DNA from: Prorocentrum cordatum
Taxonomy: Eukaryota
DNA: 64,000 nt
Assembly (NCBI GenBank): GCA_963575745.1
Contig: CAUYUJ010000270.1
Span: 248,001 to 312,000 of the forward strand
Direction of reading: 5' to 3'
The notes under the pieces are model-generated. The model was not told where the DNA came from. It made no database searches and saw nothing but the letters and a program-made list of their open reading frames with translations. The translations under genes and the position numbers were made by a program. Below, one piece after another: positions 13,746-22,309 of the stretch. The stretch's first letter is position 1. The number at the start of each line of letters is the position of its first letter.

Positions 13746-16700
13746 AGCCCTTCCTTTTCTTATTCGAGGGCGTCTCAAGCGAACAACAGCAACAGTTCTC
13801 AAACGATACAGGCACGTATTCGAGGTCTCAAGCAGCAGCAGCTCCGCATGGACAACATCCGTAGCCTTTCTGGCCCCAAGCCTTTCGAGCACGCCACTCG
13901 CGCAGAAGCTTCGCCTCTCGAGCGCGACAGTCAAACGCCAGTCGACATGAGCACGCCGATCAAGCGGCAGTCGAGCCTGTCAAGCTTATGGGGACTAAGC
14001 TCGAGTCCGGTGGAATCCCCGAGCTCCCACAGGAAGCTCAGGAGCTCGCCTTACCTGACTCCCGAGGCAAAGACGATGTTCTTCAAGGAGCTCGAGGCGA
14101 AGAGGCTCGAGGCGGAGAAGTCCGAGCAGGAGCGCCTCGCAACCGCTGCTGAGCGCCGAGCGAAGGCGAGCGCCGAGGGGAAGGTGCTCGACCCCGACGA
14201 CATCGGCCGAGGCGTCGCTCGGGGGCCGAAGAAGGGCGGCAGACCCGAGGGCTCGAGTCGCAACTACCACGGGACGCACAAGCCCCGAGCAGCTCCCACC
14301 CTGCGCCGAGACCCGCCCGCGCAGTGCAAGCTCCAGATCGTACTCGACTGGTGCAAGCAGGCCGACAAGCACGAGCTCGCGGACTTTTCCCAGCTCCCAG
14401 TCGGCGTCAAGGCTCAGCTCACCGAGAAGTGGCGCTGGCCCTACGAGGCAGTCAAGAACTGGCACAAGAAGAGAGCGTCTCTCGAGAAGCTGGTCGCCAC
14501 GGCGAGGCTCGGCAAGAACGGCATCCGAGCCTGCGGCCGACACCGGCCGCGTCAGGCAAGGCCGGACAAGAGCCAGGGCGCGAGGTTGCAGAACTTCGCT
14601 CCTGGCCTGGCGTGCCCCGAGCGCCCCCTCGAGGGAGTCATGGGCCGACTCGAGACCCGGTTCAAGCGGGAACGCATGCGCGGCCACGAGGTTCGCCACA
14701 AGACGGTCTTGACCAGGCTCAAGTACGAGCTCGAGTGGTAGAAGGTCAAGCAGCTCCATCTCAAGAAGACGAGCCACCCCTGGTACAACCCCGAGATTCT
14801 CAAGAGACCCACCCAGCGGCTCGCGACCTTCAAGATCAACAACGTGGCCAGCAAGGACCCGAAGTGGATCGACGAGGTCGTGCCCCCGAGGCTGCGCGCG
14901 TCAGGGCACAAGGGCCAGCGCCTCTCGGAAACCAAGAACAAGACCCTCTCCCAGAGCAAGGCCAAGCTAACCTGGGCCACCGCCGACACGTTCCAGCACC
15001 TCCTGGCGAGGGGCAGCGCCGAGGAGCTCAGCCTCTTCGTCGCAGGCGCCGAGGCCTTCGCCGAGCGCAGGCGAGACGCGAGCGCGGTCGTCGTCGACGC
15101 CGCCGCGCTCTGGCCCAAGCTCCGAGGCGAGGAGAAAGTCTACCTCCGCGAGTCCGAGCTCCAGAGCGCAAGCCACAATGCTCGGATCCAGAAGCTCCGC
15201 CGCAAGTTCCGCGAGACGCAGGCCGAGGCAGACGAGGCAGCTTGGGGGGCCGAGCGAGAGAAGTTCTACGAGGAGCATGGCGACAAGAAGCAGCAAGTAG
15301 ACCAAGCGTACTCGAGCGCGGGCGACAAGTACAGGCTCGCGCTCATCAACGTCTCGGGCGTCGAGGGGTGGTTCGACCCGAGCCGGGGTCCGAGGTCGGC
15401 CAAGAAGCGCAGCGCGCCCCTAGTCCCGTGCGCGAGGCGCTGCAAGATCTCCGGCATGAACCTCGAGAGCGGCACCTGGCTCCGAGACGTCCGCTACGAG
15501 CGGGGCGACGGCGAGGCCGAGGTCTTCCGAGCAGGCGAGAACATCGGCACGACCATGAAGGGTTGGCGCCAAGCCCTCCTCGAGTTCGACCCCGAGGAGC
15601 GCGCCAAGATCTTCGAGCAGATCGACATTTGGGGCCAGCCGAGAGCCTGGACGGACGAGCTCATTGCAAGCTGGACCATTGACTTCATCGAGCAAGAGCA
15701 CGGCCAAGCCCTCGTCTTCGCAGATTGCCTGTCGAGCCAGTAGAACGAGAGCGTGGCGCTCCGAGCTTGGCTCAAGAACATCGTCAACGCGCCGATGGCC
15801 CCAGACGCGACGAGCTTCCCCCAAGAACCCGACGCCCACGAGCGCAGCCAGCTCAAGGCGGCGATCCGCAAGGTCAAGAGCGAGATCCACTGGGCGGTCG
15901 AGCAGGAGTGGCTCCAGAAGGTTAAGGCCGACCCACCAAGGACTACAAGTACACGATCAACTGGGGGCCCGACGAGTGCATCTACTGCATCCCCGAGGCC
16001 TACAAGCGCTTCCGCGAGGAGAACAAGGAGGCCGTGCCGCCCCATGGCATGCAATCGAACCAGATGCTCGCAGCGAGGCGGCGGGAGGGAGGAGGAGGAG
16101 GAGGAGGAGGAGGGGGAGGAGGAGGAGGAGGAGGAGGAGGGGGGGGGGGGGAGGAGGAGGGGGGGGGGGGGAGGAGGGAGGAGGAGGAGGAGGAGAGGGA
16201 GGAGGAGGGGGGAGGGAGGGGTGAGGAGGAGGGAAGGAGGAGGAGGAGGAGGTCGAGGAGGAGGGGGAGGAGGATCTCGAGCCTGGAGCTTGGATCTTCA
16301 AAGATTTCAAAAGAATCCCAAGAGGATCTCCGAGAAAGCTTCCAAGATGACTCCAAGTATTCGCTCGGGGATGTCTCGAGCGAAACAGGCGTTTTTTCAA
16401 GGATGCCTCAAGCGAACCAGATGCTCGCAGCGAGGCGGCGGGCGGGAGGAGGGGGGGGAGGAAGGGAGAGGGGGGCGGGGGGGAGGAGGGAGGAAGGAGG
16501 AGGGAACAGGGGGGAGGGGGGAGGGAAGAGGGGGGGGGGGAGGAGGGGGATGAGGAAAAAGAGGGAGGATGAGGAGGTCGAGGAGGAGGAGGAGGAAGAG
16601 GATCTCGAGCCTGGAGCTTGGATCTTCAAAGATTTCAAACGAATCCCAAGAGGATCTCCGAGAAAGCTTCCAAGACGACCTCAAGCATTCGTTCGAGGAT

Positions 16701-16969
16701 GTCCCAAGCGAATCAGGCGATTGTTCAAGGATGTCCCAAGCGAAACAAGCAGTGCTTGAGGAATCCTGTTCTGCTCCACCTCCTCCTGCTATTCATTTCT
16801 CCTCCCCCTCCTCCTCCTTCTCCTCCTCCCCCCCCCTCCTCTGCCTCCTGCTCCTCTACTTTCTCTCCTCTTCCTGAGTTTCCTCCTCCTCCTCCTCCTT
16901 CTCTCTTCCTCCCCTTTCTTATATCTCTCTTTCTCCCTCTCGCTTTCCTTTTTTTTTATATGGTTGTCC

Positions 16970-19990: not shown

Positions 19991-22309
19991 TTGAAATTTG
20001 GATTGTCGCTGCTTCCTTCCCCGCTCCTCTCTCCTCCTCCTGATCCCCCTGCTCTTCTTCCTTTCCTATATTCATATGCATGTTATCTGGGTGTTGTTTG
20101 ATCATATATATATATACTCTCTCTCTTTTTTGTGTGTCTCTCTCTCTCTCTCTCTCTCTTTCTCTCTCTCTGTCTCTCTCTCTCTCTCTCTCTCTTTAAC
20201 CTTATATCTCCCCCCCCCCCGTGGCCCGCTGAAGAGGAGAGGGGGGGCGGGGTGGGGGGGGGGAAGGAGGGGGGGGGAGAGGGCAAGAAGGAGGAGGCTA
20301 AGGATGAGGAGGGGGATGAGTCGCGGCGAGGCCGACCGGGCAGAACGAGCTGAAGATCGCGACGGGCGAGGAACCCTGGAGCTACCCCATCGAGGCTGGC
20401 AGAGGCATCGAGCCGAGACTGGCCAGGGAGAGGCTCGAGGCCGTTGCGAGCTGGCCCGAGAACGCGCCCCCAGTGCCCGACTGGAGCTCGCTAGACGGCG
20501 AGTGCTTCGCAGTCGAGGACTTGCCGAGGGACTACGCGGACGACGAGAACCCCTGCCCCCTCGAGCTTGCAGAGCTAGACCTCGGGCTCACAGACGAGCA
20601 GCAACAGATGCTCAAGCCGCCAGAGGAGCGCATCAAGAACGCCCAGTTCCCGCGCGCCCTGGAAGGCCGAGTCAGGCTTCGCAAGGGAAACGAGCGCAAG
20701 AACAAGTGGGCGAGCAAGTTCCGAGGCCAGTGCGCGGGCAAGCTGGCGGCCAAGTGGAACAAGGCGAATCGCGAGCAGAAGGGCCGAGACGCACTCGAGA
20801 GCAAGAGCCGAGGCATCGCCGAAGCGAAGCTGACAGGGCGAGCCCCCAAGCCGAAGACCTCCTTCTCAGAAGGGCCCAAGCAGAAACCGAGAACGAAGCA
20901 AAACAAGACGGCAACAGACAAGAAGAAGCAGAACGGGGGCCTCGAGCCTTGCAAGGACTCGCCCTGGCACGGCAAGATCGCGCGGGTCGACGAGGAGCGC
21001 TTGCGCGAGGGCAGGCATGGCAGAGTTCAAGACGTCTGGCGCGTCAAGGACTGCGAGGGCGAGTACCAGCTCCGGCTGCTCGAAGTCGAGACGGCGGCGA
21101 TCTTCCAGATCCGTTCCAGCCAGGCTCGAGGGGCCATGGGGCAGGGCCGGAAGCCGAGCAGAAGGGCCAGCGGAAACAGAGCGGAAGTTGACGCGGAAGC
21201 CGAGCGGGAGCTCGCGGGGAAGCCGAGCGGAAGGGCAGCGGAAGCCGAGCGGGAGGTCGCCCCTAGTGACCCACCGGCCCTCGAGCCTGAGAGGTCGTGG
21301 TCGAGCAGGAGTGGGCGCCCGCCAAGCCCCTCAAGATAGATTGGCGAGTGTGCAGGATGTTCAAGCGCACCGAGCTCGCCAAGCATCTGGCGATCACGAA
21401 TTGCGAATTCGTCGAGAAGATCCGCACCCTCGAGCTCGGCACAATGCGAGCCCTGATAGGCGAGTTCGGGGAGCGAGTGGGCGTTCCCGAGGATGTCCTG
21501 CTGATCGAGCCGACAATCGCTGTCACCTGGGCCCGAGGAGACCAAGGCGACGACGAGCCCGCGACCGAGGCCCAGAGCGAGCAGAAAGCCTGGCTCGAGA
21601 AAGTCGAGAACGCCAAGCACATCCTCATTTGCGTCCACAGCGAGAACCCAGCGCACTACACCTACCTCAAGGTGACCAAGGAGCACGCCAACAGGGCCAT
21701 CGAGTACCGAGACGCCCTCAGGGTACCGTCCGAGTCCGCCAAGCAGGCGGCCGCGAGGATCCTCCACAAGCTCCTGGGCCCTGAGGTCGAGTGCCCCGCT
21801 CCGAGCAACACGAGGTTCCAACTTGACGAGTGGTCCTGCGGCCTGTGGGTGACGAGGTGGTTCGAGCGCGCCCTGCGCGAGATCCGCGGCGAGGGCCGCC
21901 TGCCTCCGAGCACCATCCAGGACATCTACTCGCGAGGCAACGAGTGGATCCAGAAGCTGCTAGATGCGAGCGGCAACGCTGCCGCCCAGGCCAAGGCAGA
22001 GGGCAAGGCCACGCCCAAGGGCAAGGCCAAGAGCAAGGCCAAGGATCCGCTGGAGGCCGAGCCCAAGCACGCCGCCCTCGAGGCAGCCCTGCAAGCGGCC
22101 AAGGATTGCAAGAAATGCGAGATGCTCAAGGACGGGTCCAAAGGATGCAGGGCGTGCATGGGCGAGCAGTTCGAGGCGGTGCGCAAGAAGGGTTTCCTTG
22201 CGAGGGTAGCCAAGGAGTTCGAGAGCAAGGTTATGAACATTTGACTGCGAGCAGTCTCAGCTGTTCCGAGCTTCTGCGCGAGACCCTGGCAACCAAAAAG
22301 AATACGATT

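Follow-up and report, generated by a model that had tools for sequence, protein, structure and literature searches.

A pseudogenised member of a multi-copy dinoflagellate gene family that probably joins a divergent pogo-like transposase to a Ulp1-like protease in Prorocentrum cordatum

We analysed 64,000 nucleotides (nt) of Prorocentrum cordatum DNA (contig CAUYUJ010000270.1, positions 248,001 to 312,000 of the forward strand), a GC-rich eukaryotic stretch that is referred to below as the window and whose own numbering is used throughout. On its + strand, positions 13848-22244 are likely to represent a pseudogenised copy of a multi-copy dinoflagellate gene, whose intact versions encode a single transposase-protease protein of approximately 1300 amino acids (aa). 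From the N- to the C-terminus, the intact protein would consist of a basic, helix-turn-helix (HTH)-like N-terminus, a divergent pogo-like core with three catalytic Asp residues (D1, D2 and D3) and an insert of approximately 150 aa between D1 and D2, a linker with small conserved blocks, a clan CE protease and a CxxC…CxxC tail. The transposase may bind and cut DNA in the manner of the pogo/Tc1-type enzymes, and the protease may act on a host protein or on the enzyme itself, stripping it of a ubiquitin-like modifier (SUMO, NEDD8 or ubiquitin). For at least part of the family, a trans-spliced mRNA encoding the whole fusion would be retroposed, and tandem duplication would add further copies. In the window, an insertion or duplication event would have broken up the open reading frame (ORF) and left behind a direct repeat ending in AGGC; splicing of the resulting interruption as a GC-AG intron, before the copy died, is about as probable as its absence.

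The transposase-protease fusion

The locus comprises a + strand frame at 13743-16553, with its first ATG at 13848 and in-frame TAG codons at 14739 and 15741, and two further open frames on the 3' side, at 20320-21339 and 21291-22244. Past approximately 15931 the homology moves from the first frame to the next one, in which it continues up to 16077. When related proteins were compared with the window using tblastn, P0025 aligned with 14187-15926 and then with 15941-16078, P0032 with 15914-16087 (residues 231-283) and 20329-20928 (residues 280-485), and P0057-59 with 20329-21336 and 21126-22241, and the 1293-aa protein of locus L003 covered all three window blocks in order. Because the relatives show this colinear order, the fragments located 4.25 kb apart belong together, and these alignments, far above chance, identify them as colinear parts of one protein. 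The initial annotation of the window, which was made from its letters, had already assigned the fragments to one protein, and the relatives agree with it.

The fusion was then evaluated in the relatives themselves. Near-length database relatives were found for the C-terminal part (24) and for the transposase part (32), none of them with a precomputed Pfam domain. The end of the transposase is joined to the middle region in P0032, and the middle region to the protease in P0015; the 772-aa P0061 runs from the D2-D3 part of the transposase through the protease to the Cys-rich tail. A scan of metagenome contigs yielded 19 loci. Locus L003 contains an intact, intron-free ORF (129-4010, 1293 aa) in which every block is present, L004 and L012 show a single frame across everything they contain, and L016 has both halves with an interruption at another place. 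Among the proteins of at least 700 aa that contain the transposase region, 13 of 15 have the protease in their ORF as well; the two exceptions, P0069 and P0190, stop at the transposase region, before the protease. Judged from these sequences, the fusion of transposase and protease in one protein is real. The polyprotein proposed by the initial annotation is therefore upheld by the long relatives, and L003 is an intact, intron-free copy of the kind that it had suggested looking for. It had named separate genes for the two domains in all homologues as an observation that would refute the fusion; this is not what was observed, since single ORFs span both halves in L003, L004, L012 and P0061.

An exhaustive profile search retrieved 952 representatives at E ≤ 1e-3, each standing for a cluster at 50% identity, of which 501 remained at a limit of 1e-10 and 159 at one of 1e-30; many of the 952 clusters are fragments and broken copies. 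No relative was found in viral contigs. The sole named relatives found are two P. cordatum proteins, P0022 and P0060, both designated as "unnamed protein product". Since the family is invisible to Pfam and no other named relatives were found, it probably belongs to the "dark" gene complement of dinoflagellate genomes.

In the N-terminal region (13848-14738), a basic stretch rich in GRP precedes two helical, HTH-like conserved blocks (RRDP..KL.., RLGxxGLRPFGS, PLE..RL.KWF..ER.HGHEVR); the region has homologues in the N-terminal parts of P0033, P0025 and the L003 ORF. Its PLE..L..WF..ER..G..V pattern may resemble an HTH_Tnp_Tc5-type domain. The catalytic region follows at 14742-15931, and the end of the transposase (15932-16077) is shifted into the next frame by the loss of 1 nt behind 15931 (…KDYKYTINWGPDECIYC…QSNQMLAAR). 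The Asp codons of the window are located at 15096-15098, 15723-15725 and 15831-15833, so that the last two form D-x35-D, as the initial annotation had described. In P0025 numbering, D303 is conserved in 70 of 72 sequences, D512 in 65 of 68 and D548 in 57 of 59. The D1-D2 spacing amounts to approximately 209 residues in the same numbering and includes conserved blocks of its own (GDKYR…LLVP..H).

The HMMER check proposed by the initial annotation was negative: at E ≤ 1, none of the five ORF pieces of the window matched the Pfam families DDE_1, HTH_Tnp_Tc5 or Peptidase_C48. At the same threshold, nothing relevant was matched in 33 and 29 relatives. The long relatives gave no DDE_1 or HTH_Tnp_Tc5 match. 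When 124 relatives were searched at E ≤ 10, DDE_1 was the Pfam family matched by most members (four). The E-values were 9e-4 for P0110, 1.5e-3 for P0076, 0.011 for P0136 and 0.074 for P0130, with scores of 19.3, 18.6, 15.8 and 13.1 bits, respectively, all below the gathering score of 22 bits of this model (length 177). All four matches fall on model positions 51-142, which correspond to the D2-D3 stretch WGQP..W.D…DCLGSQW…PNATSxLQxxDTH. Their E-values would be far stronger if the test counted the three named families and not 24736 models. Comparison of the transposase region with PDB sequence profiles gave only weak unrelated matches, and comparison with NCBIfam gave none.

In a language-model protein atlas, P0025 adjoins DDE_1 clusters, several of them with HTH_Tnp_Tc5. 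The first match has a score of 0.96 (206 of 256 features in common), the ten best family-bearing matches share one family or clan with the best one, and every family-bearing row among the matches listed is DDE_1. Because two independent weaker lines, the DDE_1 neighbours in the atlas and the four sub-threshold DDE_1 matches, point in the same direction, we consider that the transposase part is probably a highly divergent pogo-like enzyme. The designation "pogo-type" of the initial annotation is thus supported indirectly, without a match at a curated threshold or to HTH_Tnp_Tc5.

Pogo elements have a DD35D triad and TA target duplications. The present family resembles the pogo/Tigger/Fot1 elements (DDE_1, IS630-Tc1-mariner) in its D-x35-D, in an [N/D]xTSxLQxxD…K motif after the second Asp, in a W-rich helix before the second Asp, in its atlas neighbours and in the common register of the four DDE_1 matches. 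It differs from them in the absence of any DDE_1 match at the gathering score, in the long D1-D2 spacing, in the absence of an HTH_Tnp_Tc5 match and in that no terminal inverted repeat (TIR) or TA duplication was seen.

The middle region (20331-21123) contains the conserved blocks GRGIEP, PPxPDW..LD, LELT..Q..ML.PPE.R, RKNKW..KF and EPC.DSPWH…VRV, and is colinear with P0032, P0057-59 and the L003 ORF. Searched against PDB profiles, it gave only a weak match to the CstF-64 C-terminal domain (2j8p, E 0.03). The block involved is LELTEHQKxMLxPPExR (20600-20650), and the resemblance is too weak to be claimed.

For the protease domain, the 317-aa translation of 21291-22241 is open in the window, and a model built with 29 sequences reached a predicted local distance difference test (pLDDT) score of 87.4 and a predicted template modelling (pTM) score of 0.69. 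Foldseek returned 52 PDB matches at E ≤ 1e-3, and all those among the matches listed are CE-clan proteases, in the order NEDP1 (1.2e-6), XopD, SENP5, Ulp1 and NopD. Against viral models, the top matches were Ulp1-like proteases of phaeoviruses and giant viruses. The catalytic residues are conserved (His122 in 27 of 27 sequences, Asp141 in 27 of 28, Gln177 in 28 of 29 and Cys183 in 28 of 29), the Gln lies six residues before the Cys, and in profile alignments they are in register with those of XopD. A first profile matched XopD at E 0.65 only, and a profile of 31 more diverse relatives matched it at E 5.5e-7 (31.8 bits, 150 aa), followed by the Ulp1-like 6dg4 (0.018) and NopD (0.019). XopD was also the only NCBIfam match (E 0.015). 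The Pfam model Peptidase_C48 is nearly blind to the family: at E ≤ 1 it matched neither the five window pieces nor any of 29 relatives, and among 124 relatives it matched only 2, with a best E-value of 0.13. One member matches YopJ, also of clan CE, at E 3.9e-4.

The C-terminal domain (21363-21974) is thereby confirmed, through its modelled fold and its catalytic residues, as a CE-clan protease of the Ulp1/SENP type, and the H-D-Q-C protease of the initial annotation corresponds to residues that are nearly invariant in the family alignment (His 21654, Asp 21711, Gln 21819 and Cys 21837). The family shares 10-16% identity with NEDP1/DEN1 (SENP8), XopD, NopD, SENP1-7 and yeast Ulp1, and it adds a C-terminal helical part and the CxxC…CxxC tail. 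Likeness to these folds cannot tell the substrate (SUMO, NEDD8 or ubiquitin), and the role envisaged in the initial annotation, deSUMOylation or self-processing that counters silencing, is speculation. The tail motif is located at 22107-22157, before the stop codon at 22242-22244. Its four Cys residues are present in 27 of 27, 27 of 27, 26 of 26 and 26 of 26 aligned sequences, a pattern from which the tail is likely to bind zinc.

Lesions and interruptions of the window copy

The window copy is a dead pseudogene. For the analysis of its lesions, the window was compared with related contigs from four sequencing runs, which are 90-97% alike (three of the runs are recorded as probable DNA and one is unspecified). 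The in-frame TAG at 14739-14741 stands for a Glu in relatives and is GAG in related DNA contigs, position 14739 showing T>G in X1 (one contig) and X4 (two contigs). The second TAG, at 15741-15743, stands for the Trp of DCLSSQW in relatives. A G is absent behind 15931; one X1 contig has this G, which restores the sequence AEPTKDYKY, as in P0027. Near 21146-21290, the window differs from L001 by +2, +24, +1 and +8 nt, and the 24-nt addition introduces a stop in the ancestral frame. Because of these four indels, which come in addition to the lost G, the copy has more than one frameshift. The initial annotation was therefore right about both TAG codons and about the frameshift near 15931, and its count of a single frameshift is too low. 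The ratio of nonsynonymous to synonymous substitutions (dN/dS) between the window and L001 is 0.98 for the middle region and 0.42 for the protease. We also weighed recoding of TAG and dismissed it, given that the two sites hold different residues in relatives (Glu and Trp) and that the copy is also frameshifted.

The coding sequence is interrupted between 16078 and 20330. The P0032 alignment breaks at 16087/20329, and the coding sequence is therefore cut exactly there by 4.25 kb. An AG|GC is found both at 16077/16078 and at 20330/20331, and removal of the sequence between them gives a colinear in-frame product. The two borders, TCGCAGCGAG|GC and TCGCGGCGAG|GC, are identical at 11 of 12 positions and constitute an AGGC-ended direct repeat; among 200000 random AGGC pairs in the window, only 1130 match as well over the seven upstream bases. 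The interruption contains a tandem duplication of approximately 360 bp that includes the exon end (16052-16419 and 16409-16747), GGA and CTC runs, (CT)n at 16971-17548 (578 bp) and two copies of a palindrome-bearing repeat of approximately 1.14 kb (17605-18930 and 18747-20077), of which a third copy is located at 9797-10783. The copies of this dispersed repeat (approximately 1.0-1.3 kb) are 82-89% identical and have an internal palindrome of approximately 420 bp (18291-18710) and GC-rich 28-bp sub-repeats; the repeat may be a foldback or non-autonomous element.

None of the related contigs from the four runs spans 16077|20331 or 21123|21294. P0057-59 start within one codon of the 16077/20331 junction. 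Since all four loci that span the site lack an interruption there, the first proposed intron is not ancestral. The L016 interruption is located at 1553-2963 (approximately 1.4 kb), between MLLPPQAE and WAVVELP, and can be removed in frame as GA…AG. It is built from a tandem duplication of 592 bp, which takes in the acceptor side, and from CRAVPCRALP-type minisatellites, and it indicates that lineage-specific interruptions of this kind occur in the family. According to the available part of a study of dinoflagellate introns (bioRxiv 10.1101/2020.10.14.339549), such introns often arise from insertions, and the duplicated target (e.g. AGGH) provides both splice sites. GC and GA donors are described as normal in Prorocentrum in the part available of another study (bioRxiv 10.1101/2022.07.25.501386). 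By analogy, the borders in the window look like those of an insertion- or duplication-born GC-AG intron. As regards the first intron of the initial annotation, its AG|GC boundaries and its in-frame colinear removal were recovered, and its position is not common to the four spanning loci.

The initial annotation had proposed a second intron at 21124-21293. This stretch is a degenerate, frame-changing 11/23-bp tandem-repeat linker with a TRF array at 21148-21252. The closest relatives, P0057-59 and L001 (contigs of DNA or RNA), translate it in frame as a linker with an 11-aa period that leads into EVVVEQAW, and more distant relatives are without it. The frame change is explained without splicing by the four indels relative to L001. 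Compared with these relatives, 21124-21293 reads as a decayed repeat linker and not as an intron, and the latter interpretation is unlikely.

Spread of the family and rival explanations

At least part of the family spreads by retroposition and tandem duplication, as relict DinoSL spliced leaders (SL) and head-to-tail copies are found in relatives. L003 has an exact 22-nt DinoSL located 22 nt 5' of its ATG, the leader itself being preceded by 84 nt of other sequence. In L004, the C-terminus of an upstream copy is followed, approximately 500 nt on, by an A-rich patch and two tandem relict leaders (three mismatches each), and then by the next copy, the head-to-tail unit being 4432 bp. L005 has the same spacer, also with two relicts. 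In total, 5 of the 19 loci have an SL or a relict on the gene strand; no DinoSL relict could be recognised 5' of the window copy. Exact or near-exact DinoSL sequences are also located a few hundred nucleotides 3' of the stop of the protease gene, at 1051-1071 in L013 and 1185-1205 in L008. As the leader in L013 precedes a different ORF, not all copies occur in homogeneous arrays. Between L003 and L004, dN/dS is 0.33 overall and 0.23-0.47 by region, rough values since dS is saturated at 1.2. The family is transcribed and trans-spliced, and at least part of it multiplies by mRNA retroposition and tandem duplication.

Several results weigh against the interpretation preferred here, that of a pseudogenised member of a pogo-like transposase-protease family with an insertion- or duplication-born interruption. 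No Pfam model reached its gathering score in the five window pieces or in the 33, 29 and 124 relatives. Among 29 N-terminal sequences, HTH_Tnp_Tc5 was absent at E ≤ 10 and BrkDBD appeared once (E 4.2); the N-terminus gave no relevant PDB match and no CENP-B signal. No TIR or TA duplication was found between the flanks 12900-14000 and 22100-23300, where the only match was a 14-nt chance one inside the ORF, nor at the ends of L003, L004, L012 and L016 (short contigs with tandem-array flanks), and the assignment as a transposon is therefore made by homology. The leader of L003 could be an assembly chimera of transcripts and not a genomic relict. No inverted termini were found for the 4.25-kb interruption, and three of the four loci spanning its site (L003, L004 and L012) are uninterrupted, L016 being interrupted elsewhere. 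Finally, excision of 21124-21293 would shorten the product to the length of the distant relatives in which this stretch is missing.

The last point favours the full scenario of the initial annotation, a cut-and-paste pogo-Ulp1 transposon with two genuine spliceosomal introns and a copy disabled by point lesions. Both proposed introns have AG|GC … AG|G borders and restore the frame, the GC and GA donors reported in the available part of the Prorocentrum study cited above are compatible with them, and the start of the P0057-59 ORF clusters within one codon of the first junction fits a shared discontinuity. However, the closest relatives translate the second stretch in frame, with four indels separating L001 and the window, L003, L004, L012 and L016 lack the first intron position, and neither TIRs nor target-site duplications (TSDs) were found, so that we regard this scenario as distinctly improbable. 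By contrast, there is nearly an even chance that the 4.25-kb gap was never an intron and was produced by post-mortem repeat insertions and tandem duplications in a dead copy. The gap is made of dispersed repeats (also present at 9797-10783), microsatellites and an exon-end duplication, the copy has four other kinds of lesion, and the position is unshared in all four spanning loci. On the other hand, the boundaries are exact, the frame is kept and the dinoflagellate AG|GC…AG|G pattern stands in a direct repeat; moreover, P0057-59 start at the same point, L016 has an in-frame GA-AG interruption that is built likewise, and published dinoflagellate introns arise in this way, as far as the available part of bioRxiv 10.1101/2020.10.14.339549 goes. 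On these sequence features, former splicing as a GC-AG intron and post-mortem damage may be about equally probable.

A further explanation is that the family consists of domesticated host genes, in which a transposase-derived DNA-binding enzyme with a deSUMOylase-like domain is encoded in SL-trans-spliced tandem arrays, the window copy being a dead paralogue. The 4432-bp head-to-tail units of L004 with their relict leaders, the spacer shared by L005, the SL directly before the L003 ORF and the purifying selection across all parts can be explained in this way, as can the lack of visible TIRs at the window copy and at the ends of L003, L004, L012 and L016, and the colinear paralogous locus of P0060, which indicates a spread together with neighbours by segmental duplication. 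Nevertheless, the three catalytic Asp residues are kept in 57-70 of 59-72 sequences, the 952 clusters, many of them broken, are more like a proliferating element, and the contigs are too short to show the ends of an element. Besides, any expressed dinoflagellate gene, a transposase gene included, gains SL relicts by retroposition, to the extent covered by the available part of PMC6050394. We therefore consider domestication doubtful. The same doubt applies to the broader proposal that dinoflagellates keep a pogo-derived enzyme with a SUMO/NEDD8-type deconjugase as a working, selected family that is trans-spliced, tandemly arranged and retroposed instead of being cut and pasted. If this were true, the selected family might act on the largely histone-free dinoflagellate chromatin or on the repair machinery, and it would constitute a lineage that branches deeply, escapes Pfam and conserves both active sites in hundreds of clusters. 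That two unrelated genes adjoin by chance and that the polyprotein is a reading-frame artefact has next to no probability. No Pfam domain ties the pieces together and some ORFs hold one half (the transposase in P0025, the middle region and the protease in P0057-59), but the idea is refuted by the single ORFs over both halves in L003, L004, L012, P0061 and 13 of the 15 long relatives, and all blocks are colinear in the window.

Known systems and neighbouring features

Capture of Ulp1-type proteases has occurred repeatedly in unrelated DNA transposons, CACTA and Zisupton among them, and we know of no established role for these proteases in DNA transposons. Ulp1/C48 domains are reported in Ginger1 and Mutator-like elements (in the available part of PMC2836005) and in oomycete Cryptons (in that of PMC3212892). 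As in the present family, a transposase or recombinase is combined there with a C-terminal or accompanying Ulp1-type protease, but the catalytic enzyme differs, being Gypsy-integrase-like, MuDR or a tyrosine recombinase in those elements and pogo-like here. The family thus adds a pogo-like, very divergent case to the transposons with a captured Ulp1 domain. Our literature search found no paper that joins pogo/DDE_1 with Ulp1/C48, or dinoflagellates with such a transposase.

In the atlas, the best neighbour of the L003 protein is a [quoted passage not shown] of 1151 aa from Basidiomycota (score 0.88, 176 of 256 features in common). Of the 64 members of this fungal cluster, 69% have DDE_1 and 53% have Peptidase_C48, so that the same two domains occur at a similar length. 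Pfam recognises the fungal proteins and not the dinoflagellate ones, and the two were compared by features and not by alignment, a score below 0.9 being a lead only. Since this cluster exists, the two-domain architecture is not unique; the view of the initial annotation that Ulp1 is not a standard part of pogo transposases agrees with the literature search, and the fungal cluster stands against it.

With regard to retroposition, L003, L004 and L005 resemble DinoSL retrogenes in having an SL or relicts before the ORF, and the window copy differs in that none can be recognised. The AGGC-ended direct repeat of the window is like the AGGH duplications of insertion-born introns (bioRxiv 10.1101/2020.10.14.339549, available part), whereas introner elements, which the available part of bioRxiv 10.1101/2022.07.25.501386 defines by inverted termini, differ from the window interruption in this respect. 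The SL relicts and tandem units would represent a transposase gene spreading by the retroposition route of its host. Intact single-ORF members such as L003 would be a clean substrate for work on modifier specificity, and the family rather than the window copy is the part of interest for follow-up. The practical value at the window lies in annotation, as this gene copy is a pseudogene and P0060 apparently merges pieces of such a copy with the adjoining genes.

The P. cordatum model P0060 (1357 aa) is colinear with 11645-23162 of the window at 64-85% identity, including a piece of the transposase-protease copy. Because of this colinearity, the window copy was duplicated along with its neighbours. 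P0060 joins the upstream gene, two transposase-protease fragments and the downstream gene, and is probably a merged gene model across a pseudogene.

The copy is flanked by two SL-tagged genes and is not clearly within an intron. DinoSL relicts on the + strand are located at 11476-11499 and 22641-22663, directly 5' of ORFs, and further relicts, on the same strand and likewise before ORFs, are found at 35813-35833, 42140-42151 and 46773-46793, with exact 12-mers at 42140 and 46782. The DinoSL sequence and its use as a tag of retrogenes are described in the available part of PMC6050394. Since relict leaders sit directly before their ORFs, the neighbour genes (two paralogues, one at 11.5-13.2 kb and the other starting at 22.66 kb) are suggested to be retrogenes. 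Arrays of a 32-33-bp unit (…TCGAGGATGTCTCAAGCGAAAC…) occur in the spacers 5' and 3' of each gene of the region (11390-11466, 12585-12665, 13300-13532, 22311-22631 and 23189-23422) and inside the 4.25-kb interruption (16684-16760). In its last bases (…CTCAAG) the unit resembles the 3' end of the leader, and in L001 the same unit is found right after the 3' untranslated region (UTR) and an A-run. One possibility is that the arrays are stacked leader or UTR remnants.

No second copy of the gene was found in the window, and scans of the window with Rfam and for tRNAs gave no matches. Most other window ORFs of at least 180 aa are without a Pfam match. A weak RVT_1 match, below the cut-off (E 7.7e-4), is located at 30356-30937 on the + strand, and a 100-N assembly gap (57657-57756) lies in a purine-rich, high-GC stretch (56-60 kb). 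On the - strand, at 24991-27128, two adjoining ORFs contain superfamily 1 (SF1) helicase domains (AAA_11 5e-15, AAA_12 5.9e-11 and 1.1e-8), and this pair is one gene, split or intron-bearing.

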